NCBI GenBank assembly: GCA_934276735.1 | Contig: CAKQTG010000001.1 | Coordinates: 224,455 to 288,454 of the forward strand | Direction: 5' to 3' | Length of the DNA stretch: 64,000 nucleotides | From: an uncultured Alphaproteobacteria bacterium | Lineage (GTDB): Bacteria > Pseudomonadota > Alphaproteobacteria > Rs-D84 | In this document: positions 2,004-48,468 of the stretch, one piece after another | Numbering within the stretch: the stretch's first letter is position 1 | Layout of the letters: each line of letters opens with the position of its first letter | The notes under the pieces: generated by a model | Database searches by the model: none | Told to the model about the DNA's origin: nothing | Seen by the model: only the letters and a program-made list of their open reading frames with translations | Position numbers and translations under genes: made by a program

Positions 2004-2444
2004 ATGAAATCAAACCTATTAAAATCTGTGGTTCAGACATGTATAATCCTTTCACAGGAACGGTGGGAAAAAATGCAGGCGGATATAGATAAACTGGTCG
2101 CAACATTGAATTTAACGGAATACCAGGCGCACGTCTTGCGTACGCGACGTCATCAATATGATATGACTGGATTGGTAAAACGGGGCGGGGTTTTGTATGT
2201 GCCACGCAGCGCGTCTGATGGGCCAGGTATTGTCCATTATGTTCGCCGCATATTATTCGGGCGACGTGCTGATTTGATTGGGCGCGATAAAATCTTGTTA
2301 CAAGCGGTGCGTCGCATAAAATTTATGGCCGATGGATTGCACTGCGTTCGGGTTGGACAATATCAATACTGGGCTGATAAAAATGGACAATCGGTTTCTG
2401 CTGAATATGTTCGGCGTCATTTGACCCAGAAAAATCGACACTAA
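2004..2444 (+). CDS. hypothetical protein (146 aa), questionable
   Basis: Open frame with a basic, Arg-rich globular-looking product. It starts directly after the aspS terminator and overlaps the convergent asmA stop by 4 nt. No recognisable family. Confidence 0.3.
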   Translation: MKSNLLKSVVQTCIILSQERWEKMQADIDKLVATLNLTEYQAHVLRTRRHQYDMTGLVKRGGVLYVPRSASDGPGIVHYVRRILFGRRADLIGRDKILLQAVRRIKFMADGLHCVRVGQYQYWADKNGQSVSAEYVRRHLTQKNRH

Positions 2445-4915
2445 AATTTATCGTGTGTTTTTATAAATTGGCGCATAAAACTGGAATCGAAATTTGTCAT
2501 AATTTCAGTCAATGAATAATTACGTGTGCCGTCTGGCGATATAGTCAGGCGAACGGGTGCAGGGGTTGGCGCCGTTCCCCGCATTGTCATATTTAACATG
2601 ACAGTCATATGCGCGTTTTCAATATCAAATTCACCATACGCATCAACGTGGCGCATTTGCAACGTAAATGGTTGCGCAGTTATAAAATTACCATTGGTGT
2701 ATTTACCAACAATACGCATTTTCTTTATTGCGGTTTCGCCACCGGTCAATGCGTCGGCTAATGCATATTCGGCATTAAAGGTGTTTATCTGGTCTGCGGA
2801 CGCATAGAATTCATCAAACCCTAATCCAATAATATATCCGCCGTAAAACGACAAATCCATGTCTCCGTCCAGGTTATACCATATATCGTGTGCGATGTGA
2901 CCATTGGTCTGTAATGAAATTTCAGCTGTAATCATTGTGTCACGGATATTCAGTGGCATTATGCGTGATAACAGATATCCATTGATTACAAATTTATTTA
3001 ATTGAATATCGATGTCGTATTTTGATGCGTCCTTGCGCAATGTGGCCAACAGATTTCCACGTGCCGCGTCTGTGATAGAAAATGTCTGGGTATTAGATTT
3101 CAGGGCGTATATAAAATTCTTGTATTCATTACCGTTGTAAATCAGTGTGTCTGCGGTCAAAGAAATATCAACCGGTAATTCAAATGGCAATGTTATTGGT
3201 GCGGCTGTCAGAAATTCTAATTCATCATAATTATCAATATAATTCTGGTTCGCAAATGCGTCGGCGTTTAATAATGCAGTGCGCAGGGTAACATTGCGGC
3301 CACTGAGGCTGCCACTAAATTTTTGGGTGCCGATTGTGACGTCCATATTTGATATGTTGCGGCCGCTGTATGTGCCGGATACTGTATATGGCGCGTTGTT
3401 CAATGATTGCAGGTCAACATTCGGTATTACGTCCTTGAAATTATCGCCAGAGAGCAGAAATGTTTTATCCGTCATAGATATTTTCCATTTCGCACCACGT
3501 GGTATGAACGCCATCGCACCGTCAGACCATTTCATGTCGCCTGTGGTATTCAGCATAAAATCAGGCAAGAATTTAAAGTCTGGCACCGCCCAACGCAATG
3601 TTTGATTACGCGCAAATGAATATGAAGCATTGACAGATTTTGGTGTTATGTTAAATACGCCGGCAATGTCATTGAATTGAAATTCCAGTTTTCCGTTTTT
3701 GCCCAGACGTCGCACCGCGCGGACTAATTTGTCAGCGTTTGGCATTTTGCCTGGTGCGCGAATTGATGCGTTAAATGTCCCGTTATCTACTGACAATGTT
3801 CCGGAAATATCGCCATATGAAAACTTTGAGCATTGCCATTTTTCCGGTGTGCCAGAAAATAAGCACATTGTCTGGATTCCGTCCACAGGCATTGTTACCA
3901 GAACATTATATGCGCCACTTGCATCAATTGTGCCACCTGTGACTGCAACATCATCAGCAATAATGTTTGATATTTGAACCAGTTTTTTATCGCCAATCGC
4001 ATTTATTTTCAGATGTTGGAATTCGTGCCCGGCAAGTTTTAATTTTCCGTGTAAGTCTAAATTAAATGTTGTGCGATAAAATATATTTGATGGGTTAGTT
4101 AAAAATGTAAAATCATAATCCAGGTCATTGGCCGTCAAATTGATTTCACGTGCACCATCAGGCAAAATTTTTATATCACCAGAAAAGTGGTCTGATTTTA
4201 TATCGGTAAATTCAAAACCGTATTCGCCGTCCCATGCGAAATTCATACTCAATTTTACAGGCACGTCAATACGTGGGTATGAGAATTCAAACCACTTGTT
4301 TATGTTTGGTGTGTCTATGTCCAGATGGCCACGCGCCGTTCCGTCTGAAAATAACATACCCGTAATTTCCAGTTTGTTATTATGATTTTTTATTACAAAT
4401 TCGTCGTCTAAAAATTCAAAATCATATTTGTGATCATTTGTGCGGACAGTTCCCGTCAGACCACCATTGGTCAAACGTGCACGCACAATATCATAATCCT
4501 TGTCATGAAACGTCACGACGGAATTATATATATCAACGGCGTTGTTAAAATCGGGGGCCGCTAACGATTCTATATTCAGTTTTGCGCCATGAATCCCAAT
4601 TCGCCCCTGTAATGACGCATTGTCTAAGTTAAATATGTCTGTTATTGGCACAGAAAACATAACCGCGTCAATATGCCCCATTGGAATACTGACGTTATGT
4701 GCAACAATCGTTGCGCGCCCCAGCAGGCTGAAATGAATATTGCCGTCAATTTGGGCGGTGATGCCAGTTTGTTGGTATATTGCCTGGGCAATCTTTGGGC
4801 GCATGTTGTTTATCGTTATCATTGGCGGAACAATGACCAACGCCAATGCCCCAGCCGTTGTGATAAATACAGCTGTCCATAAAATTCTGCGTTTATATCT
4901 GGGTTTTAATGCCAT
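2441..4915 (-). CDS. AsmA-family outer-membrane assembly protein (824 aa)
   Basis: N-terminal basic segment plus TM helix (KRRILWTAVFITTAGALALVIV), then a long beta-rich periplasmic region typical of AsmA/TamB-like proteins. Confidence 0.7.
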   Translation of the reverse strand: MALKPRYKRRILWTAVFITTAGALALVIVPPMITINNMRPKIAQAIYQQTGITAQIDGNIHFSLLGRATIVAHNVSIPMGHIDAVMFSVPITDIFNLDNASLQGRIGIHGAKLNIESLAAPDFNNAVDIYNSVVTFHDKDYDIVRARLTNGGLTGTVRTNDHKYDFEFLDDEFVIKNHNNKLEITGMLFSDGTARGHLDIDTPNINKWFEFSYPRIDVPVKLSMNFAWDGEYGFEFTDIKSDHFSGDIKILPDGAREINLTANDLDYDFTFLTNPSNIFYRTTFNLDLHGKLKLAGHEFQHLKINAIGDKKLVQISNIIADDVAVTGGTIDASGAYNVLVTMPVDGIQTMCLFSGTPEKWQCSKFSYGDISGTLSVDNGTFNASIRAPGKMPNADKLVRAVRRLGKNGKLEFQFNDIAGVFNITPKSVNASYSFARNQTLRWAVPDFKFLPDFMLNTTGDMKWSDGAMAFIPRGAKWKISMTDKTFLLSGDNFKDVIPNVDLQSLNNAPYTVSGTYSGRNISNMDVTIGTQKFSGSLSGRNVTLRTALLNADAFANQNYIDNYDELEFLTAAPITLPFELPVDISLTADTLIYNGNEYKNFIYALKSNTQTFSITDAARGNLLATLRKDASKYDIDIQLNKFVINGYLLSRIMPLNIRDTMITAEISLQTNGHIAHDIWYNLDGDMDLSFYGGYIIGLGFDEFYASADQINTFNAEYALADALTGGETAIKKMRIVGKYTNGNFITAQPFTLQMRHVDAYGEFDIENAHMTVMLNMTMRGTAPTPAPVRLTISPDGTRNYSLTEIMTNFDSSFMRQFIKTHDKF

Positions 4916-8023: not shown

Positions 8024-8052
8024 CAAAAAACGGGGCGTTTGCCCCGTTTTTA
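8024..8052. terminator. bidirectional Rho-independent terminator (tsaE / ftsA-rpe convergent)
   Basis: aaaaaacggggc-gttt-gccccgttttt. The stop codon of the minus-strand gene lies in the T-run. Confidence 0.7.
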
Positions 8053-9819
8053 TCGCTTTAATAAACTCTGAACTGCCAGGGGAAAATCCGGACTGCGTGC
8101 CAAATATGAGCCGCTGACCAATAAATCTGCGCCGGCGTCCCAGCACATTTGTGCTGTTTTATCATTTATTCCACCATCTACTGAAATTATAAATTTCAGT
8201 CCGTATTTTTTACGTGTTGCGGCCAAAACAGAAATCTTTTTCAGGCAATCTGTTTGGAATTCTTGGCCGGCGGCACCTGGGGCGACGGTCATAACCATAA
8301 CTTCGTCCACATCACGCAGAATTGGCTTTAATATCGCAGGTGATGATTCTGGGTTCAGGGCAACGCCTGCACGACGCCCTGCCGCGTGAACGCTGGCAAT
8401 AGCCGCACGCAGACCAGACGTATTTGTTGACATGATAACCGTGTCGGCACCGGCGGCAACACTGTCGGTGGCCCAGACGGACGGACTCTCGGTCATCAGG
8501 TGTACGTGCAGGTGTGCGTCAGTGTGGGCACGTATCATCTTTAATTCTGGAATACCACCCGCCACGCGGTCAACATAGAATCCGTCCATAATATCAACGT
8601 GTATCATTGATATTCCGCCCGCACGAAACATTGAATATGTTGATGCACGACGCATATTAAAACACAGTGTGCTGGGCATAATTGGAATAAAACGACGGCG
8701 GTGTGCTGGGCGTTTGCGGAACAGTTTTGTTATAAAAGCAATGCGACGCTGTATACGATCACGACGCGCCAGGTACGCGCCACGATGAGTCGCCTCGGCA
8801 TTCCAGACGTGCGCACATGCCGCCCGAACAATTGCGTCATTGGAAATATATTCGGTCGGAATTGAAAATGTGTTTTCAATGAACTCGGTCGCCCCCTCGG
8901 CCAGTGCGCCACCACCGGTCAATATAATCTTGGTTGGGCGATATTTGATAATCGCGTCATGAGCCGCAGTCGTTATTTCGGCGGTAATATCAACGCATGC
9001 TGGCATAAATATATCGATGACATCGCCACGTGAAAATTCGTATGCGGTATCGGCGGGGGTAAATCTATCCATTTCTTTGGGGATAAAACTGGCTACTGCA
9101 CGCTTTATCCGTTCAGCGTCATCAAAACCTATGTGCAATTTTGCAGAAATGTCGTTTGTTATTTTTGTTCCACCCAGTGGAATTTTATAGTGCCAGACTG
9201 GGCCACGGTCGGTCCAAATGGACGCTGATGAAAATTCCCCGCCCAGGTCAATGAACATGACTGTTTGTTTCTTTTGTCGCAATGTTGTATTCAGTAAAAA
9301 TTGCGGGTCATAAAATGCACAGGGTGTGATATGGGCGCGACGCAGAAAACCCAATACTTCGTTCAATCGCGATTTCGTATAAAATATTGCGCCAAACGCC
9401 GATATCAGCTGTCGGTCGGTATAGCCAATTGGACTAATCATATTGCGTGCGGTTGGCGTATCGTATCGCAGTGGCACGATATGCATTGGAAAGTATCCGT
9501 CAGGCGCGTTTATCTGGGCAATCTGGGCACGGACATCGGCAGTTGTGATTTTGTGTTCGCCGCCCCAAGCGGTGCTTTTTGCAGTCATTTCAAAAATAGA
9601 CGTGCCAAAATTCCCCGTGATATATGCGGTGTCAAAACTGGTTCCGATTTGATGTTCCAGATCGTCAATTACATACCGCAGTGCAAACACGGTATCAAAA
9701 CAATCCGATGTTGAAATTGCAGATTTTACAATCTTGGCCCCACGGACACGGTGTGCCATTCCGCGCACACCGGTCGATCCAATGTCCAGACATAAAAAAG
9801 CCGAATCAAACAGGTTCAT
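8050..9819 (-). CDS. ftsA: FtsA (actin-like cell-division ATPase) fused in frame to ribulose-phosphate 3-epimerase (Rpe); single 589-aa ORF
   Basis: N-terminal ~370 aa carry the FtsA motifs LCLDIGSTGVRG, FIDLGGEFSSASIW and ILTGGGALAEG, plus a C-terminal amphipathic segment IAFITKLFRKRPAHRRRF. Translation continues without a stop into a complete Rpe barrel (HVDIMDGFYV ... ISVDGGINDKT ... LLVSGSYL). Confidence 0.7.
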   Translation of the reverse strand: MNLFDSAFLCLDIGSTGVRGMAHRVRGAKIVKSAISTSDCFDTVFALRYVIDDLEHQIGTSFDTAYITGNFGTSIFEMTAKSTAWGGEHKITTADVRAQIAQINAPDGYFPMHIVPLRYDTPTARNMISPIGYTDRQLISAFGAIFYTKSRLNEVLGFLRRAHITPCAFYDPQFLLNTTLRQKKQTVMFIDLGGEFSSASIWTDRGPVWHYKIPLGGTKITNDISAKLHIGFDDAERIKRAVASFIPKEMDRFTPADTAYEFSRGDVIDIFMPACVDITAEITTAAHDAIIKYRPTKIILTGGGALAEGATEFIENTFSIPTEYISNDAIVRAACAHVWNAEATHRGAYLARRDRIQRRIAFITKLFRKRPAHRRRFIPIMPSTLCFNMRRASTYSMFRAGGISMIHVDIMDGFYVDRVAGGIPELKMIRAHTDAHLHVHLMTESPSVWATDSVAAGADTVIMSTNTSGLRAAIASVHAAGRRAGVALNPESSPAILKPILRDVDEVMVMTVAPGAAGQEFQTDCLKKISVLAATRKKYGLKFIISVDGGINDKTAQMCWDAGADLLVSGSYLARSPDFPLAVQSLLKR

Positions 9820-10564: not shown

Positions 10565-10945
10565 TCAACTGGCGCGTAGCAAATAACCGCGTCTAAACAT
10601 ACACCTGCGGTATGCGCCGACAGTTTTAGATGTTGTATTTCGTGGCACCGACATCAGGGCCCGCTGACCCGCGTCGGTATATTCATTGGATTGAAATGTC
10701 ACCCACAGACCGTCCCAGTCCGGCATTTGGCCACTCTGGTTCGGGGCCAACAGTTTGGCAATACGGCTGCGTGGCATATATGACGGCTTGGTTATCCCCA
10801 GGCATGCCTTGTGGTCACGAACAAATTGTTCCATGGTGACGGATTCATTTTCCCAATTCAAAACCGTGGCATCGTCAATGTTGCCACGATTTGGGGACGC
10901 ACATGCCGCCAGTGCCATTATTAATGCCAGATATTTTATTCTCAT
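10565..10945 (-). CDS. small lipoprotein, hypothetical (126 aa)
   Basis: Signal peptide with lipobox LAAC-A (MRIKYLALIMALAACASP). Confidence 0.55.
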   Translation of the reverse strand: MRIKYLALIMALAACASPNRGNIDDATVLNWENESVTMEQFVRDHKACLGITKPSYMPRSRIAKLLAPNQSGQMPDWDGLWVTFQSNEYTDAGQRALMSVPRNTTSKTVGAYRRCMFRRGYLLRAS

Positions 10946-11021
10946 GTTTTATATTATAATTTATTTGCCTTTGGGGGGCAATAGTTTTTATAATAGGCAT
11001 AACAAGGAGAAAGAGAATATC

Positions 11022-11348
11022 ATGGCAATAACAGTTGCTAATTTTATAAAGATGGCAAACTTCTATAACCAGATGGCAAAAATGATGTCAGCAATCTGTG
11101 TAGAAAAGGGTGGCATAGCGATGGAAAATTATGTCGGGCGTTTCTTTGCGGCCGATACGTTGGAATTCGTTGCCGAATACGGACGTCGCCTGGTGGCGCA
11201 GCGGCCCAGTGACCTGACACCGGAAATTGTTGGGGTGATTGAACGCTTTGAAGAAAGTTACAAACGGGTCAAGGATTTAACGACACCAACACAGAAACCA
11301 ATTTATGAAATGACATTGGCAGAATTTGAAAAAATTATGAACATATAA
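11022..11348 (+). CDS. hypothetical protein (108 aa)
   Basis: ATG preceded by aaggagaaagag RBS; the upstream part of ORF 10755..11348 is antisense to the lipoprotein gene. Confidence 0.45.
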   Translation: MAITVANFIKMANFYNQMAKMMSAICVEKGGIAMENYVGRFFAADTLEFVAEYGRRLVAQRPSDLTPEIVGVIERFEESYKRVKDLTTPTQKPIYEMTLAEFEKIMNI

Positions 11349-11352
11349 AAAC

Positions 11353-12723
11353 GTGGCAAAGGAGATGTGGCGGATGAAAACAATGAAAAAAATATTTGGT
11401 GGGGCCATGGCAATAACGCTGGTGGTGGCGTTGCTGGCGGCGTGCACCCAGAAAAATGCCGCGACCGATATGCCCCAGTATGATACGGTGACGGTTGTAG
11501 ATAACCTGGTCATTGATGAAAATTCGGTGCCGATTTTCCCGAAAAAGGCGGCACTGACCACAGATACAGCACGTCGCTTTTCCCTGGATTTGCCAAAGCG
11601 GTGCGAGGTAAATTGGGATAACCAGGCGGTTGTTTCCGTTGTTCCCGAAGAAAAAATTGAAATTATTCGTCTGAATACCGGTGACGCGTTGCCAGAATTA
11701 CAGGTGTCGGACTATGAATTCAAGAAATTGACGGTAAAACGTGCATTGGATAAATTGCTGGACGGAACAGATATATCGGTCATAGAAGACGAAGAAATGA
11801 TTGAAACTGTATCTGGCTCAATCAATTCTGGTAAATTGTCTGATGCGGTTGAACTGATGGCCAAGATGGGGCGTGCGTATTATTCCTATGATGCCGACGC
11901 CGGCGAAATTCATTTGACGCATCGTGCAAAATGGTTGGTAAAAATGCCACACGACCAATCTATTATTATGGCGTTGATTGACGCAATGCGTGGCGCAGAT
12001 GTGCGAAATCTGTTGGTGGACTGGAACGACAAGACGTTGGTGTTTGAAGGAAATTACCAGACCGAGCGCGAGGTTTCCAGAATCATTGCTGATGTCGCGT
12101 CCAAGAAATATATGCTGGCGTGGGACATTGATGTGTATCGCGTGTACCCACGCACAGACAATCCGATTGTTTGGATGAATATGTTGCCGGCATTTGGGGA
12201 CAAAAATATTAAAATGTCTATCCCAGGCGTGGTGGGGCGTGCGCTGGTTGTGGGACCGGAAATTAATACCAAGACGTTGCAAGAATTCTTGTCGCAACAG
12301 GCAAACGTAGTTTTGATATCCCAGGGTCAGTTTGTAATTCCAAACGGTTGGCAATCGCGTTTTGATATCGGGCAATGCAGCAAGGAAGAACGCCTGGAAA
12401 CAGATTTGATTATTGGTGCAACGGGCAAGTATGGCGATTTTGGCGGCCGTGATAAAATTGATGCGAAAATCGTTTTGCGAACCAGTAATGGCGAATTGTC
12501 ATCGTTTAACATTCCGTCAAGCATTGGTGATAACTATGTGATTATCGGTATTCCGACGCATTCGTTCGTGACAACACCTGAAACGCTGATATCACCGTTT
12601 GCAGAATTAGTTGTGTTTATGTCACCGCGTGTGATTTCCATTGTTGATGCACACGCTGCACCAAGTGGCGCGTCTGCGCCACTGGTTGGTGACGCATTAC
12701 GTAAATTTTTACGCCAAGAATAA
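11353..12723 (+). CDS. secretin-like outer-membrane lipoprotein (lipobox LLAAC; start may be 11386)
   Basis: Lipoprotein signal MKKIFGGAMAITLVVALLAACTQ. The C-terminal third resembles the secretin domain (VVLISQGQFVIPNGWQSRFDIG ... DNYVIIGIP ... AELVVFMSPRVI, cf. secretin terminus ELLIFITPRIV) but lacks the canonical GGL/PxLGxIPxLGxLF segment. Confidence 0.5.
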   Translation: MAKEMWRMKTMKKIFGGAMAITLVVALLAACTQKNAATDMPQYDTVTVVDNLVIDENSVPIFPKKAALTTDTARRFSLDLPKRCEVNWDNQAVVSVVPEEKIEIIRLNTGDALPELQVSDYEFKKLTVKRALDKLLDGTDISVIEDEEMIETVSGSINSGKLSDAVELMAKMGRAYYSYDADAGEIHLTHRAKWLVKMPHDQSIIMALIDAMRGADVRNLLVDWNDKTLVFEGNYQTEREVSRIIADVASKKYMLAWDIDVYRVYPRTDNPIVWMNMLPAFGDKNIKMSIPGVVGRALVVGPEINTKTLQEFLSQQANVVLISQGQFVIPNGWQSRFDIGQCSKEERLETDLIIGATGKYGDFGGRDKIDAKIVLRTSNGELSSFNIPSSIGDNYVIIGIPTHSFVTTPETLISPFAELVVFMSPRVISIVDAHAAPSGASAPLVGDALRKFLRQE

Positions 12724-12742: not shown

Positions 12743-13999
12743 ATGTTATTTTCAAGACTAGAAAGAAAAATCGCATTCAGATACCTGGCCGCAAAAAAGC
12801 GCGGATTCGGTTCTGTTATTTCATGGGTGTCGCTGATTGGCATTACGCTGGGGGTTGCAACACTGATTGTTGTTATGTCAGTTATGGGCGGATTTCACGA
12901 AACGTTGTTATCGCGTATTGTTGGTATGAACGGTCACGTTGTTGTTTATCATCAGGACGGCGCAATCAGTGATTTTGATTATCTGATTGATAAAATGAAA
13001 CAGAACAAGGTTGTGTCAGCAAATGCAACTGGTATCGTTCCTATTGCCGAGGGGCAGGTTATGGCCACTGCCGGTGGTAATAATACAGGGGCGATGGTGC
13101 GCGGAATTCGTATGACAGACCTGACTGCCAAGACCCAGGCAGGAACAAAAATTTATGGCAAGAAATTATCCGAAATCCGTGATGGTGAATTGATTGCGGG
13201 GGCGTCACTGGCGCGCAGTCTGCGTATCGGTATGGGGGACAAGGTATCGTTGGTATCTGCCAATGGGGCGACGCCAACACCATTTGGTTCAATGCCACGC
13301 ATAATGTCATATCCGGTTATGTCATCGTTCTTTATGGGTATGTATGAATATGATTCTGGATATATATTTATGCCACTGGAAACCGCCCAGAAATATTTAA
13401 ACATCGGTAATGCCGTAACGCATATTGATTTGTTCCTGCGCAATCCCGAAGATACGACCGCCGTGCGCGATGCGTTGGTGCGTCTGTTGCCAGATGGTTT
13501 TGTCGTGCGTGATTGGCGCGAATTAAATCGTGGCTTTGTCGGTGCGTTACAGGTTGAATCAAATGTGATGTTCTTGATTTTAATGCTGATTGTCATTGTG
13601 GCAGCATTTAATATTGTGTCGTCGTTGGTAATGCTGGTCAAGGACAAGAACAAGGATATAGCCGTCCTGCGCACGTTTGGGGTATCGCGTAAATCGATGA
13701 TGAAAATATTTATTTTGTCTGGCACCAGTATCGGTGTTATTGGCGCGTTCTTTGGCACGGTGTTGGGTGTTATTGTCGCGATTTATATCGAGCCTATACG
13801 CCAGTTTTTCCAGTGGGCAACGGGGCGCGACCTGTTTCCGGCAGAATTGTATTATCTGTCTGAACTGCCATCTAAATTGGTGCCGGGGACTGTGATTGGG
13901 ATTGCGGTGCTGGCGATTGCATTGGCGTTTCTGGCGACAATTTATCCGGCATGGAAGGCTGCATCAACCGACCCGGTCGATGTGCTGCGAAATGAATAA
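12743..13999 (+). CDS. lolC: lipoprotein-releasing ABC transporter permease LolC/LolE (single-permease type)
   Basis: MLFSRLERKIAFRYLAAKKRGFGSVISWVSLIGITLGVATLIVVMSVMGGF is the LolC/E N-terminus; FtsX-like C-terminal TM bundle. Confidence 0.85.
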   Translation: MLFSRLERKIAFRYLAAKKRGFGSVISWVSLIGITLGVATLIVVMSVMGGFHETLLSRIVGMNGHVVVYHQDGAISDFDYLIDKMKQNKVVSANATGIVPIAEGQVMATAGGNNTGAMVRGIRMTDLTAKTQAGTKIYGKKLSEIRDGELIAGASLARSLRIGMGDKVSLVSANGATPTPFGSMPRIMSYPVMSSFFMGMYEYDSGYIFMPLETAQKYLNIGNAVTHIDLFLRNPEDTTAVRDALVRLLPDGFVVRDWRELNRGFVGALQVESNVMFLILMLIVIVAAFNIVSSLVMLVKDKNKDIAVLRTFGVSRKSMMKIFILSGTSIGVIGAFFGTVLGVIVAIYIEPIRQFFQWATGRDLFPAELYYLSELPSKLVPGTVIGIAVLAIALAFLATIYPAWKAASTDPVDVLRNE

Positions 14000-14018: not shown

Positions 14019-14729
14019 ATGGCAAATATTTTAAATTCTTTATCGCGTGTGAAAAAAGGTGACGTTGTCCTGTCTGTGCGCGATATTAAAAAGACATTTA
14101 TCGAAGGTGGACAGCCCTTGCACATTTTGCGCGGTGGCGGTTTTGATTTGCACCGTGGTGAAATTATCGCATTGGTTGGACAATCGGGATCTGGAAAATC
14201 TACGCTGTTACAGTGCGTCGGATTGTTGGATAAACCCACCAGTGGCAGCATTTTGCTGGACGGGGCGGCAACGAACCGCATGGACGAAGACACTCGCACA
14301 ATGATGCGTCGTAACAAAATCGGATTTGTGTACCAGCGGCATAATCTGTTATCTGATTTTACGGCATTAGAAAATGTTGTTTTACCAATGTTGGCGGCGG
14401 GCACAGACGAAATCACGGCAAACGGCCGCGCGATGAAATTATTACAATTGGCCAGTGTTGCACATCGTGCATCGCACCTGCCCGGGGAAATGTCCGGGGG
14501 CGAGCAGCAGCGCACCGCGGTTGCGCGTGCGTTGGCCAATAATCCGGAAATTTTACTGGCCGACGAACCGACTGGCAGTTTGGATCCAGCACATGCAACT
14601 GCGGTGTTTGATTTGCTGTTGGAATTGGTGCGCAAGAATAAAATGGCAATGTTATTTGTGACACACGATATGAATCTGGCCGCACGTGCCGACCGAACAA
14701 TCACAATTCGTGATGGAATTGTAAAGTAA
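14019..14729 (+). CDS. lolD: lipoprotein-releasing ABC transporter ATP-binding protein LolD (alternative overlapping start at 13992)
   Basis: Walker A GQSGSGKST, ABC signature LSGGEQQRTAVARAL, Walker B LLADEPTGSLD. Confidence 0.85.
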   Translation: MANILNSLSRVKKGDVVLSVRDIKKTFIEGGQPLHILRGGGFDLHRGEIIALVGQSGSGKSTLLQCVGLLDKPTSGSILLDGAATNRMDEDTRTMMRRNKIGFVYQRHNLLSDFTALENVVLPMLAAGTDEITANGRAMKLLQLASVAHRASHLPGEMSGGEQQRTAVARALANNPEILLADEPTGSLDPAHATAVFDLLLELVRKNKMAMLFVTHDMNLAARADRTITIRDGIVK

Positions 14730-14758: not shown

Positions 14759-15610
14759 ATGAAAAAAATATCAACCACAAAATATGAAACCACCGTCCCC
14801 ACATCGCGCAAGGTTTGGGGTGTGCTGGCACTGGCCGGGTTATTTACATGCGGTGTATTTATCGGAACAACATTGAATAATAATCGCACGCCTGATACAG
14901 AATTTTCCGATGACGCATGTCGCGAATTGGCGGATAAAATTGCCGGCGAAACAGACGAGGCCACATTAGAACAACTGGGTGAAACATATTCCGAACATTG
15001 CACTGTGGACGCATCAGATCAGAATACAACCAGCCTGTCACGGTGCCAGTGGTTCGAGAAAATACTTTCTGCGCGCTTGTGTCCAGACGATAATCTGATG
15101 AATGATAGCTATTGCCTTAAACAAAATATTGATATTTATAAAAAATTGGTGACATACGGTTGCCCAGAAAATCGTGATAAATATGTTGAAATGGCGAGTA
15201 ATCAAGACACCTTATTGAATGCTGTGTTTGGTGAATACAACTTTGTAACCAAGGAAGTTTCAACATGTGAACGTATTGAACAATTGTTGAAGGGAAGATT
15301 GAACCCAAAAGATGTTGATAACTTTAATTATCATTTGGAAAATGCGGAAATCTATGCACGTCTGGCAGAACGTGGATGCCCAGAAAACGCCGATAAATAT
15401 CGTGCATTGGCCGCCAGTGAAATAGAAATCACAACGGCATTACAACCGGTTGAAGCTATGTCTGATATTGACGTGGCAGAGGTTGTTGATGTCTATAAAA
15501 AGGTGAAAATGCAGGCCGCCGCGCAACAGGTAATTGATACCCTGCAAAAGGTTTCTGAACCAACCATAGATTTTATTTTGAAACTGGAAAAAATTGTAAA
15601 TGAAGAATAG
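14759..15610 (+). CDS. membrane-anchored periplasmic repeat protein, hypothetical (283 aa)
   Basis: aggaga RBS; N-terminal signal-anchor WGVLALAGLFTCGVFIGTTL; internal repeats YKKLVTYGCPENRDKYVEMA and YARLAERGCPENADKYRALA. Confidence 0.55.
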   Translation: MKKISTTKYETTVPTSRKVWGVLALAGLFTCGVFIGTTLNNNRTPDTEFSDDACRELADKIAGETDEATLEQLGETYSEHCTVDASDQNTTSLSRCQWFEKILSARLCPDDNLMNDSYCLKQNIDIYKKLVTYGCPENRDKYVEMASNQDTLLNAVFGEYNFVTKEVSTCERIEQLLKGRLNPKDVDNFNYHLENAEIYARLAERGCPENADKYRALAASEIEITTALQPVEAMSDIDVAEVVDVYKKVKMQAAAQQVIDTLQKVSEPTIDFILKLEKIVNEE

Positions 15611-15620
15611 GGGGCGCGTT

Positions 15621-16265
15621 ATGAAACGTTTGTTTGTTGCGATTTCGGCACTGGTGTGTGTTGGGTGGACGGCGGCGCATGCGGCTGATGTTGCACCGCG
15701 TATGTCGTGCGCAGATATTAAAACCCAGATGGATACATTGTTCGCGCGTGATGATTTAACCGATGATGAATCAAAACAATTGACCGATATGCGCACAAAG
15801 TATCGTCGTGATTGTGTTAAACGTGCGGCGGGTGGTCGTGGTGCGCAAACTATTGCGGCCGCACGCGCACCGGTTGCAACCGATGATGCGAAAAATTCGG
15901 ACGCCGCCGCGGCCACACCTGGCGCACCATGTGATACCCCGGACGAACATGGTTGCTGTCCGGGTGAAACGTATACCGATATGGGTGACCAGGGATTTAA
16001 TTGTTGCCCGTCTGATGGCGGCATGTGCTTTACGCCAATGGTGCTGAAATCGGTTGAAAATACCGAAGTTCAAGACGATGCACCTGTCAAGACAGACGAA
16101 GAAATCGCGGCGGAAATAAATGCGAATATTGCGGCAGGTCTGTGCGCCGATGGCACCAAGCCGAATAAGTATGGTTGTTGTGCCGATGAATTGTTCCGCG
16201 ATATGGGCGGAACGTTCGCGTGCTGTCCAAAAACGGGCGGTGACTGTTTCCCGCCGATGAATTAA
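15621..16265 (+). CDS. secreted cysteine-rich tandem-repeat protein, hypothetical
   Basis: Signal peptide MKRLFVAISALVCVGWTAAHA. Two copies of the module GCCPGETYTDMGDQGFNCCPSDGGMCFTPM / GCCADELFRDMGGTFACCPKTGGDCFPPM. Confidence 0.55.
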   Translation: MKRLFVAISALVCVGWTAAHAADVAPRMSCADIKTQMDTLFARDDLTDDESKQLTDMRTKYRRDCVKRAAGGRGAQTIAAARAPVATDDAKNSDAAAATPGAPCDTPDEHGCCPGETYTDMGDQGFNCCPSDGGMCFTPMVLKSVENTEVQDDAPVKTDEEIAAEINANIAAGLCADGTKPNKYGCCADELFRDMGGTFACCPKTGGDCFPPMN

Positions 16266-16282: not shown

Positions 16283-17902
16283 ATGAAAAAAATAACATTT
16301 ATAACAAGTGCATTATTGCTTTCGGCATGTGGTGGTGGAAGTGGCACCGGCACAATTGACAATCCTGGGGCAGATGTTGTTGTCCCAGAATACGCAGATT
16401 TTTTGACAACAAGTTTGGCTGAGACCCAGGATAATTCAGTTGAGCTGAACACGTATGTTGAGTCCGTTTTGGGCTCGGATGGTGAAGTTGTGTCAGAATC
16501 AACCGGGAGACGGTCTGGCACCCGAAAAGTTAAAAATCATCATCACGATGCTCAATATAATAGCAAGCAACTTGATGACATGAAAGATTTTTTTGATAAA
16601 GATGATGAGTATAAAAAAGAATTTATATCAAGAAATCGTGATTTGGTGAAACGGTATGCCAAACTTGCATGTGGTTGTGATATGAAGGATTTTGATTTTG
16701 ATGGAAGATCAGATGATGACGTTTTTCATCATTTAAAGAGTGATGCTTTTAGACCCAATGAAGTGTGGAAAAAATATCACTATCGTCAGGAACAACTGGC
16801 AAACCAGAAATTATATTCTGGCAGTGGTAGCCGTGATTGGGGTAATGGGTATGTAAAAATCACAAAGTTGCAAAATGGAAAAATAGCGAATATAAAGTTG
16901 TATGACGATTGGTATGAGCGCGAATTTAATTTTGATAAAGGCTCAGACAATAAATTTTACGCGACACCTTATTCTTATGCTATTCTATGTGGTGCAGGCT
17001 GTATTATTCAATATAACACAGACAATACAAACGAGAGTTTTGAAAGCATTAAGGCCGGATTGCAATACACGTTGGATTCATTCGTGTATCCGCTTACAGA
17101 GGAACAAAGACAGATAGCACAGGACGCTATTGATTCATTAACATCTGAAACTGCACCAATAATATTAAGTCAAACAGAAATGGAAGGTGGTTCGTATACG
17201 TCTGGTTTCTTTAAGATACCAAATCATTTTGCGGTGGATGTTCGTGCCTATGGCAAGCAGGTTGGGTTGCAATATGCTGATTTTGGTTCTGTCGTTGGTA
17301 GTCAATGGCTTGATGGAAAACGGAGCGAAACAGATAATGGCATTGGATATGTGTTCGCGGGTGGTTATGGTATAAAAAACATAAATAAACAAAATATCCA
17401 AGGTAGTATGAATTTCAAGGGGCAGGCTGTCGGTCATGTTATGTACCATGAAGAAAATGCAAATGGGGTTGCCACTGATGATTATATGTTTGTTAAATCA
17501 AACGCAAATTTGACATTCCAGGCCGATGGTACAGAAAAATTGTTTATGAATTTTTCTGACAATGCCGATGTAAACAAAAGGTGGTACGATGTTGAATATA
17601 CGAAAAAGGGTGATGACGTTAGCGTAACACTATCAAATGGCGACAGGATTGCCGCAGAAAATGCAAAATATAAGTTCAAAGATACTGAATATAGTGGAAA
17701 ATTTACACAAGAAATTGTTGATGAAAAGTATAATCGAATGATCTCGTGTGATTTTGATTCAAAATATTATGGCGATAATGAAAAACCGTCAGAAGCAACA
17801 GGTGTTGTAAACTTACTTGATCAAACGTGGGCCAAAGATAGTGCTGAAGATAAAGAATTATTTTTTACGGCGGCGTTTGGGGCTAAAAAAGATAAACGGT
17901 AG
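16283..17902 (+). CDS. surface lipoprotein, TbpB/fHbp-like C-terminal beta-barrel family (539 aa)
   Basis: Lipobox LLLSAC followed by a GGGSGTG linker. C-terminus ...LFFTAAFGAKKDKR matches the conserved FGAK ending of TbpB_B_D/lipoprotein_5 barrels. Clearly more AT-rich codon usage than flanking genes. Confidence 0.6.
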   Translation: MKKITFITSALLLSACGGGSGTGTIDNPGADVVVPEYADFLTTSLAETQDNSVELNTYVESVLGSDGEVVSESTGRRSGTRKVKNHHHDAQYNSKQLDDMKDFFDKDDEYKKEFISRNRDLVKRYAKLACGCDMKDFDFDGRSDDDVFHHLKSDAFRPNEVWKKYHYRQEQLANQKLYSGSGSRDWGNGYVKITKLQNGKIANIKLYDDWYEREFNFDKGSDNKFYATPYSYAILCGAGCIIQYNTDNTNESFESIKAGLQYTLDSFVYPLTEEQRQIAQDAIDSLTSETAPIILSQTEMEGGSYTSGFFKIPNHFAVDVRAYGKQVGLQYADFGSVVGSQWLDGKRSETDNGIGYVFAGGYGIKNINKQNIQGSMNFKGQAVGHVMYHEENANGVATDDYMFVKSNANLTFQADGTEKLFMNFSDNADVNKRWYDVEYTKKGDDVSVTLSNGDRIAAENAKYKFKDTEYSGKFTQEIVDEKYNRMISCDFDSKYYGDNEKPSEATGVVNLLDQTWAKDSAEDKELFFTAAFGAKKDKR

Positions 17903-17967: not shown

Positions 17968-18042
17968 GCGGGCATAGTACAAAGGCTAGTATGCAAGCCT
18001 TCCAAGCTTGAAATGCGGGTTCGATTCCCGCTGCCCGCACCA
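17968..18042 (+). tRNA. tRNA-Gly (anticodon TCC), CCA encoded
   Basis: Manual cloverleaf: acceptor gcgggca/tgcccgc, D-stem gtac/gtat, anticodon stem caagc/gcttg with loop cttCCAa (anticodon UCC), T-arm gcggg-ttcgatt-cccgc, discriminator A, CCA. Confidence 0.85.
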
Positions 18043-18049
18043 AGAGATT

Positions 18050-18136
18050 GGGCGTGCGCCGGAGTTGGAGAGCCGGGGCAGACTGTAAATCTGTTGGCTT
18101 AAGCCTGAGCTGGTTCGAATCCAGCCACTCCCACCA
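18050..18136 (+). tRNA. tRNA-Tyr (anticodon GTA), class II long variable arm, CCA encoded
   Basis: Manual fold: D-stem ccgg/ccgg, anticodon stem gcaga/tctgt with loop ctGTAaa, variable arm tggcttaagcctga, T-arm gctgg-ttcgaat-ccagc. Acceptor gggcgtg/cactccc has one C4:U69 mismatch. Confidence 0.78.
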
Positions 18137-47409: not shown

Positions 47410-48468
47410 TTAAATGGTATCAAAACTGGCGATAAATGTGGCCGCGGCGGCAATGATAATCAGTTGTGGCGCGACAATTGCCAGCATTGCAGGTAATGCA
47501 CCGGTTGACCCCAATGCATTAAACATATTGGTCAGAAAATACAATGCAAAGCATGTGACAATTCCCAGGGCAAATTTTGTCCCAAAACTGTAATTACGGC
47601 GTTGGCGTGTCTGGGAAAATGCGACGCCCAGTGTTGCCATCGCAATCAGCGATAACGGCAAGAATAACAGTGTCCAAAACTGGACCAAATGACCGCGCAC
47701 TGGTGCGCCAATCGCGTCCATTTTATGGATAAACGTCGGTAATTGCCAAAATGAAATCTGGTCCGGTTGCAGATATCGGTCCAATACCGTGCGCGGGGTC
47801 AGACGTGTTTCCGCCGACCAATTGCGCGTTTTCATAATGCCGTTTGCGTCCCATACGCGCGCAGATTTCGCAGACATACCGTCATCGTCCAGGGTGACTG
47901 TTTTCGCCTCTATCCGGTTGGTCAGTTTAAATGACGCGTCCTGGACATAAATCGTTGCGTTTTCAAAATCCAATGCGTCACCAGACTTGTGCATTGTTTT
48001 TGCGTTCATTGTGATGTATCCGGCCTCTGATGCCTCGCGCAGCCAGATTGCGTCATCAATCAATTTCAGGTGGTCTGATGTAATGTTTCGATTGCTCAAT
48101 TCAACCGAATATGGATTTACGACCGTCGTTGCAAACACGCCAATCAGTGCCGCACCGACCAAGAATGGGCGCGCCATCTGGTATGGGGATAGGCCCGCGC
48201 TGGCCACAATAATACTCTCGCTGGATTTGGTCAGGTTATATGACGCCAGTAATGTTCCCATAAACACCGCCAGCGGCAAGAACAGTGGCACATATTCCAG
48301 CAATCGCATCCATGATTCCGCCATTGCCGCCACCGCCGTTGGATTTGACGGCAGACGCTCCACAAATGTCACCGCGAAAATAATCCCACACACGACCAGC
48401 ATAACAAGCCCAACGCCAGAAAAAAAACGGCGCATCAGGAATCTGGTCAAAATACTTGTTCGTAACAT
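47410..48468 (-). CDS. LptF/LptG family LPS export permease (YjgP/YjgQ)
   Basis: Six-TM topology with large periplasmic loop; N-terminus MLRTSILTRFLMRRFF... Confidence 0.75.
   Translation of the reverse strand: MLRTSILTRFLMRRFFSGVGLVMLVVCGIIFAVTFVERLPSNPTAVAAMAESWMRLLEYVPLFLPLAVFMGTLLASYNLTKSSESIIVASAGLSPYQMARPFLVGAALIGVFATTVVNPYSVELSNRNITSDHLKLIDDAIWLREASEAGYITMNAKTMHKSGDALDFENATIYVQDASFKLTNRIEAKTVTLDDDGMSAKSARVWDANGIMKTRNWSAETRLTPRTVLDRYLQPDQISFWQLPTFIHKMDAIGAPVRGHLVQFWTLLFLPLSLIAMATLGVAFSQTRQRRNYSFGTKFALGIVTCFALYFLTNMFNALGSTGALPAMLAIVAPQLIIIAAAATFIASFDTI

Follow-up and report, generated by a model that had tools for sequence, protein, structure and literature searches.

A gate-less lipoprotein of the secretin superfamily encoded beside lolCD in uncultured gut Alphaproteobacteria

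The stretch of DNA analyzed here (the window) comprises 64,000 nucleotides (nt) of contig CAKQTG010000001.1 from an uncultured Alphaproteobacteria bacterium. An open reading frame (ORF) at positions 11353–12723 of its forward strand encodes a lipoprotein that belongs to the secretin superfamily and is of type IVb-pilus ancestry; its homology, domain architecture, deletions, conservation, and gene contexts are shown directly. It is a member of an unannotated, highly diverged, and gate-less branch of the superfamily, here called the mini-secretin family. In the usual view, secretins are gated channels reserved for type II secretion systems (T2SS), type III secretion systems (T3SS), type IV pili, Tad pili, and filamentous phage. 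The mini-secretin family breaks three rules: There are no gates, none of those machines is encoded nearby, and relatives are linked to type IV secretion system (T4SS) loci. The family is invisible to Pfam and NCBIfam, its members are annotated only as “hypothetical,” and the literature searched for gate-less, orphan, or T4SS-linked secretins holds no description of it. All functional statements on the protein are inferred from sequence, predicted structure, and gene context.

Evidence for secretin ancestry

The relationship is not visible to curated models. The initial annotation had recognized a secretin-like C-terminal part and proposed a search with the Pfam Secretin model PF00263 (gathering score 27.5 bits). 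This search is negative at E ≤ 1, where STN (E = 0.11) is the only Pfam match, although profile comparison demonstrates the homology. PF00263 matches are likewise absent at E ≤ 0.1 in 10 members of the mini-secretin family. No NCBIfam secretin model, including TIGR02520 PilN, matches the protein at E ≤ 1, PHROGs give nothing significant, and PDB sequence and profile searches with the protein and its family profile return no matches.

An exhaustive phmmer search of 1.8 billion cluster representatives retrieved 129 relatives. The closer ones are ∼380–455 amino acids (aa) long, align over their full length with 24%–42% identity, and have no Pfam Secretin match; the weakest matches (E = 2e-10 to 1e-4) are longer, bona fide secretins. 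These bridging true secretins (P0205 to P0243) match PF00263 with E values of 1e-11 to 4e-21, plus STN. In NCBIfam they are nearest to MshL/PilN but below the cutoffs (60–88 bits versus 288 for TIGR02520), and among PDB entries they come closest (E = 8e-32) to BfpB, which is the lipoprotein secretin in the type IVb bundle-forming pilus of enteropathogenic Escherichia coli (EPEC). When a 28-member family profile was compared with a profile of 18 secretins using hhalign, the two aligned with 100% probability (E = 2.4e-39) over 326 columns that extend from the N0 domain to the C-terminal motif. With a BfpB fragment as master, the family profile aligned with 98.9% probability (E = 1e-17). As a separate observation, the distant true secretin P0223, a 616-aa lipoprotein-type protein, has a C-terminal TcpQ domain (PF10671, E = 1e-6) and represents a secretin fused with the normally separate TcpC partner protein.

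Structure prediction, which had also been proposed, leads to the same placement. The full-length AlphaFold2 (AF2) monomer model has a predicted local distance difference test score (pLDDT) of 85.6 and a predicted template modeling (TM) score of 0.75, and it shows a secretin-type fold. All 20 Foldseek matches at E ≤ 1e-3 are secretins, led by BfpB (E = 7e-10), a protein that the initial annotation had named and that proves to be the closest solved relative. Superposition on solved secretins covers only ∼105 of the 187 residues in the pore domain, and TM-scores over the full length are low (≤0.26). The monomer model, being compact, is thus unlike the extended protomers of assembled secretins. 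Given that N0 and N3 ring-building domains precede a domain with the secretin pore fold, and given the profile alignments, the protein is almost certainly a diverged secretin homolog.

Domain organization and missing gates

The ORF is confirmed to be real. An AGGAG ribosome-binding site at 11360–11364 stands 9 nt ahead of an ATG at 11374, and homologs are nearly all 441–453 aa long with the N-terminus MKTMKK. On the basis of this spacing and of the lengths and N-termini of homologs, the protein most likely starts at 11374 and has 449 aa; this form defines the residue numbering used throughout. The signal peptide and lipobox LLAAC (11374–11445, + strand, as for all parts of the gene) can be read directly from the sequence, as had been noted before, and Cys24 is the predicted lipidation site. 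The lipobox cysteine is kept in closer family members, and the most distant members apparently have plain signal peptides. A flexible linker (aa 27–47, pLDDT < 50) leads into a conserved extended segment that contains the invariant residue C77 (nt 11602–11604), and the AF2 confidence profile delimits the two together at 11446–11628. The STN-like N0 domain (aa ∼86–183; 11629–11922) is followed by an N3-like ring-building domain (aa ∼184–245; 11923–12108), recognized by its AF2 secondary structure (beta-alpha-beta-beta-alpha) and by hhalign against the N3 region of BfpB-like secretins, with N3 defined as in PMC12114550. The pore domain (aa ∼246–425; 12109–12648) is shortened and ends with the motif AELVVFMSPRVI at residues 410–421.

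In BfpB, the outer barrel comprises residues 307–392 and 495–545, the inner barrel residues 393–405, 431–460, and 480–492, gate 1 residues 406–430, and gate 2 residues 461–479 (PMC12114550). The family profile was chained to the BfpB fragment, and the numbering offset was checked by Arg306 and Thr309 at the N3/secretin boundary. Three deletions relative to BfpB are common to all 28 aligned family members. The first (BfpB 408–426) removes the gate 1 hairpin, the second (467–488) removes most of gate 2 and the adjoining inner-barrel strand, and the third (510–523) removes a loop of the outer barrel. In GspD, the stretch that aligns with this loop is the conserved VPxLxxIPxLGxLF segment, which we take to be the amphipathic helical loop.

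Gate 1 of the protein is replaced by QCSKEERLE alone, and the cysteine of this stub is C335 (nt 12376–12378). Cys335 and Cys77, the latter located in the segment before N0, are invariant across the family alignments, and the pair is absent from true secretins. A C77–C335 disulfide might therefore tether the N-terminal segment to the gate stub. Since both secretin gates are deleted, the protein is not a normal secretin channel.

Distribution and selection

The homologs belong to uncultured Alphaproteobacteria of the gut (Candidatus Enterousia in GTDB order Rs-D84). More than 1,200 clusters at 90% identity were found, and relatives occur in 286 species-level reference genomes, including one closed chromosome of 958,618 bp (OZ007020.1). 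These genomes are smaller than 1 Mb and lack flagella and many biosynthetic pathways, standard uptake transporters are reported to be lacking, and the organisms are probably partner-dependent (PMC12306168).

Eighty related loci from species-level genomes of close Enterousia relatives were compared. Gene order is essentially invariant: A 126-aa lipoprotein gene diverges from a run of co-oriented genes for a 108-aa protein, the mini-secretin, LolC, LolD, a 283-aa protein, and a 221-aa protein. Median identity is 79% for the mini-secretin, so that it is about as conserved in this widespread gut genus as LolC (87%) and LolD (84%). The corresponding values are 70% for the 108-aa protein, 62% for FtsQ, 46% for the 221-aa protein, and 37% for the 283-aa protein. 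Conservation across these loci indicates that strong purifying selection acts on the mini-secretin gene and that the gene is no relic.

Because of its secretin ancestry, and because scattered secretion genes are common in reduced genomes, the protein might be a conventional secretin of a pilus or T2SS with its partners encoded elsewhere, or else a functionless relic undergoing decay. However, the family as a whole has lost the gates and the conserved loop, and 79% identity across 80 species-level genomes excludes decay. In both of the true-secretin loci sampled, the nearest true secretins lie in classical pilus clusters with the order secretin, small gene, ∼580-aa T2SSE, T2SSF, whereas a ∼580-aa T2SSE or a T2SSF occurs in none of the 10 distinct family contexts sampled beyond the Enterousia clade. 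Genes for a cognate machine (assembly ATPase, platform protein, pilins or pseudopilins, or a T3SS basal body) are absent from the 80 related loci and from those 10 contexts, and the Rs-D84 study reported type IV pili only in a different lineage (PMC12306168). We consider this explanation extremely improbable. The earlier observation that pilus and T2SS partners are missing nearby holds for the entire 64-kb window: A scan of 40 ORFs, including nearly all of those ≥250 aa, revealed housekeeping genes only (aspS, uvrB, ftsQ, recA, mutL, secD, ftsK, lptF/G, glycosyltransferases, and others) and no components of T2SS, type IV pili, Tad, or T4SS.

Gene contexts in near and distant relatives

Contigs encoding distant mini-secretin homologs were collected, and their cassette homologies were established by all-versus-all BLAST. 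In a closer branch (L081, L086; 36%–47% identity), the gene order is HTH_3, X, Y, mini-secretin, lolC, lolD. In the distant branch (L082–L085, L088–L093; 25%–38% identity), the order is VirB6/TrbL-like paralogs, HTH_3, X, Y, mini-secretin, Z, and VirB6-like genes are found in all five distant loci that have enough upstream flank. The mini-secretin is thus linked to T4SS loci in distant relatives and to lolCD in its own sub-branch. The initial annotation had described the gene as stand-alone. This is true for the Enterousia clade only; in distant relatives the gene lies within a conserved cassette next to T4SS genes.

The proteins X, Y, and Z represent three further uncharacterized families and are candidate parts of an envelope machine. 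X and Y have no transmembrane segment or signal peptide, are highly variable in length, and are often repeat-rich. None of the three families gives a significant match in Pfam, NCBIfam, or PHROGs, and PDB searches with the Y domain and the Z domain were without match. The T4SS loci of these uncultured Alphaproteobacteria (L093 1–21266; L088, L090, L091, L092) encode unusually large components, such as a 1509-aa VirB10/TrbI, tandem VirB6-like paralogs of 400–920 aa, and a Peptidase_M23 protein of >1000 aa. Beside X, Y, and Z, they also carry a conserved ∼325-aa protein with two HTH_3 domains.

One piece of the cassette persists in the window. The gene located 25 nt upstream of the mini-secretin (11022–11348, +) encodes a 108-aa cytoplasmic protein that corresponds to the C-terminal domain of Y as a stand-alone unit, as judged by alignment to Y proteins and by BLAST (E = 8e-8 to 5e-5 for Y of L081, L088, and L092). 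It has no transmembrane segment, no signal peptide, and no match in Pfam, NCBIfam, PHROG, or PDB. The gene is present and co-oriented in 80/80 related loci, and it encodes the only partner conserved over the whole mini-secretin family. Homologs of X, Z, the HTH gene, and VirB6 are absent from the window and from the 80 Enterousia loci.

The linkage to T4SS genes raises the possibility that the protein is a T4SS accessory, namely an enlarged VirB7/DotD-like lipoprotein that would form an extra ring around a VirB9/VirB10 core, with the T4SS itself encoded elsewhere in the Enterousia genome. Several points count against it. Neither the window nor any of the 80 related loci contains a T4SS gene, the cassette of this branch has lost Z, X, and the HTH gene, and the adjacency seen in relatives could reflect inherited gene order instead of shared function. 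The list from a search for an Enterousia T4SS with L093 VirB11 was filled by matches of at least 92% identity from another lineage, and so weighs on neither side. Such a role is possible for the Enterousia protein, if somewhat unlikely.

The downstream flank consists of a lolC/E-type gene for a lipoprotein-release permease (12743–13999, +; TIGR02212, 417.5 bits versus a cutoff of 362), which begins 19 nt 3′ of the mini-secretin gene, and a lolD-type ABC ATPase gene (14019–14729, +). The latter contains Pfam ABC_tran, and its best NCBIfam model is TIGR02211 LolD, at 247 bits and below the 308-bit cutoff. The flanks are as first described, with a small lipoprotein gene on the opposite strand, the 108-aa protein, and lolCD co-oriented with the mini-secretin at spacings of 19–25 nt. 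One way to account for this arrangement is that the mini-secretin cooperates with LolCD in the biogenesis of lipoproteins or the outer membrane; it could, for instance, be the acceptor at the outer membrane in a lineage that has no LolB. The gene stands directly upstream of lolC–lolD, with 19-nt gaps, in 80/80 Enterousia loci (lolC/E in the same position in 80/80, a lolD-type gene in 79/80). The same linkage exists in two deeply diverged relatives, L081 and L086, where lolC/E again lies 3′ of the homolog, and lspA is near in L081. However, the fold of the protein is that of a secretin and is not LolA/LolB-like, and in the other family branch Z occupies the 3′ position and no lol genes are nearby. 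Because the three lolCD-linked lineages form one sub-branch, a single ancestral rearrangement followed by operon inertia explains the linkage, and the adjacency can also be explained by genome compaction. A LolCD-associated role is therefore very unlikely. The Lol adjacency had originally been taken as a hint of an unusual outer-membrane channel; the adjacency is real but limited to one family branch, and the loss of both gates means that the channel would not be a normal secretin channel.

It had also been suggested that the protein serves the exported proteins encoded downstream. Two lineage-specific, co-oriented genes (14759–16265, +) encode a 283-aa protein with an N-terminal transmembrane segment and a Cys-rich 221-aa protein, which are found in 77/80 and 75/80 loci, respectively. 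Neither has a Pfam or NCBIfam match, and both are absent from all distant family loci. These two are poorly conserved (37% and 46%) or absent elsewhere, as is the 539-aa protein encoded next (present in 2/80 loci). All three were therefore rejected as cargo or partners and are unlikely to be conserved clients of the mini-secretin, and it is doubtful that the first two belong to the system. Conservation points to another partner, the upstream 108-aa remnant of Y. The 221-aa exported protein (15600–16265, +) evolves fast and has a duplicated CCPxxGGxCFxPM motif.

A proposed mechanism

The reading that we favor is that the protein forms a ring, and we assign this mechanism as stated a probability of roughly 0.5. 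After export, the precursor would receive its lipid at Cys24, and the presumably co-transcribed LolCD would sort it to the outer membrane, so that it pilots itself in the manner of BfpB. Copies of the protein would then associate via their N0, N3, and beta-domains, giving a ring of the secretin type that sits in or at the outer membrane. With the gates missing, this ring would be a wide portal that never closes or else a scaffold with a lumen closed by something else, possibly by its own N-terminal segment tethered through the C77–C335 disulfide. The ring would serve no pilus or T2SS. It would be part of a conserved envelope cassette composed of the HTH regulator, X, Y, the mini-secretin, and the bitopic protein Z, which in relatives lies within T4SS loci and which in this <1 Mb genome may have been reduced to the Y fragment (the 108-aa protein) and the ring protein. 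Lipidation, oligomerization, membrane insertion, the disulfide, and transported cargo are inferred components of this model.

Another idea is that the protein acts on its own as a porin derived from a secretin, a giant and permanently open pore of the outer membrane through which a metabolically dependent bacterium takes up large nutrients or macromolecules. Deletion of both gates, strong purifying selection in genomes <1 Mb, the reported lack of standard uptake transporters and of many biosynthetic pathways (PMC12306168), and the absence of partner machinery nearby are all consistent with this idea. Yet an ungated hole the size of a secretin should, in the gut, be highly permeable to bile salts and antimicrobials, and the invariant C77–C335 pair suggests an occupied lumen or gate stub. 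Furthermore, the conserved 108-aa partner has no signal peptide and is cytoplasmic, whereas a passive pore would not need such a partner, and relatives with larger genomes also retain the protein, inside T4SS loci. We consider an independent open pore to be decidedly unlikely.

The most novel scenario is an evolutionary one. A type IV pilus secretin pore might have been captured, stripped of its gates, and recruited as the outer-membrane part of a P-type (rvh-like) T4SS in uncultured Alphaproteobacteria, creating a hybrid T4SS–secretin envelope machine with X, Y, and Z as partners. In the <1 Mb Enterousia lineage, the remnant would be a near-essential, ungated outer-membrane portal for material exchange with partner organisms. 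This scenario is speculative, and we regard it as unlikely. If a ring does form, the protein would count either as a naturally ungated secretin or as the first T4SS component of the secretin type. This would be relevant to the ways in which minimal gut bacteria that depend on partners transfer material across the outer membrane. The protein also offers structural biologists a natural “gate-deletion” secretin.

Other features of the locus

A promoter-like site, TTGCCT-18-TATAAT (10965–10994, +; consensus scan only, 10/12 matches), lies ahead of the 108-aa gene in the divergent intergenic region. It is only a candidate, because shuffling predicts at least as many such sites for this region. The 126-aa lipoprotein gene on the other side (10565–10945, −; lipobox LAAC) has a 4-nt overlap with the start of ftsQ, in the usual place of ddl in dcw clusters. 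It is found in 80/80 loci with 83% median identity, and its product has no family match. FtsA is fused in frame to ribulose-phosphate 3-epimerase in one 589-aa ORF (8050–9819, −), with FtsA/PilM-type domains at the N-terminus and Ribul_P_3_epim at the C-terminus. The fusion is conserved and is not an assembly error, because a single tblastn high-scoring segment pair crosses the junction in 67/68 related loci. A cell-division role for the mini-secretin, suggested by the adjoining ftsQ/ftsA, was rejected; the adjacency is divergent and limited to this clade.

The 539-aa lipoprotein gene (16283–17902, +) coincides with a low-GC stretch (39.6% versus ∼46%). This composition and its presence in only two of the 80 related loci suggest that it probably encodes a strain-variable surface lipoprotein. 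It is followed 3′ by tRNA-Gly(tcc) at 17968–18042 and then by tRNA-Tyr(gta) at 18050–18136. An 824-aa AsmA-like protein (2441–4915, −) and LptF/G (47410–48468, −) are retained. Together with LolCD and SecDF, they point to a complete toolkit for diderm envelope biogenesis despite a genome of <1 Mb.

Comparison with known systems

Unlike the mini-secretin, the minimal or stand-alone secretins pIV (filamentous phage) and RcpA (Tad) have kept the hairpins of gates 1 and 2 and are recognized by PF00263. The partners of pIV are pI/pXI of the phage, and RcpA functions alongside the machinery of the Tad pilus. LolA/LolB structures are not among the fold-search matches listed for the protein, and the significant matches are secretin-type domains.

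The lipoprotein secretins of type IVb pili are more similar. BfpB, TcpC, and PilN share with the mini-secretin an N-terminal lipobox, the order N0, N3, and secretin domain, and a C-terminal motif of the type ELVxxxxPRxI. BfpB is lipidated and sorted by the Lol system without a pilotin (PMC12114550), and the N-terminal lipobox suggests that the mini-secretin would likewise pilot itself through Lol, as would TcpC and PilN. In contrast to BfpB, gate 1, most of gate 2, and the outer-barrel loop are deleted, and the protein is ∼100 residues shorter. It differs from all three of these secretins in scoring below all curated hidden Markov model thresholds, in having no adjoining pilin, assembly ATPase, or platform gene, and in its family-specific, invariant cysteine pair.

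Xanthomonas VirB7 (XAC2622) and Legionella DotD are analogs that hint at a function. Each has a lipobox, a disordered N-terminal segment, and an N0 domain. However, they end after N0 (∼140–160 aa), whereas the mini-secretin continues with N3 and the secretin pore domain, no sequence similarity of the protein to Xanthomonas VirB7 or DotD was detected, and it has no known VirB9 partner in this genome. Both are N0-domain lipoproteins of T4SS that have been proposed to form extra rings (PMC3093366). In view of this precedent, members of the distant branch of the mini-secretin family could plausibly be T4SS accessories.
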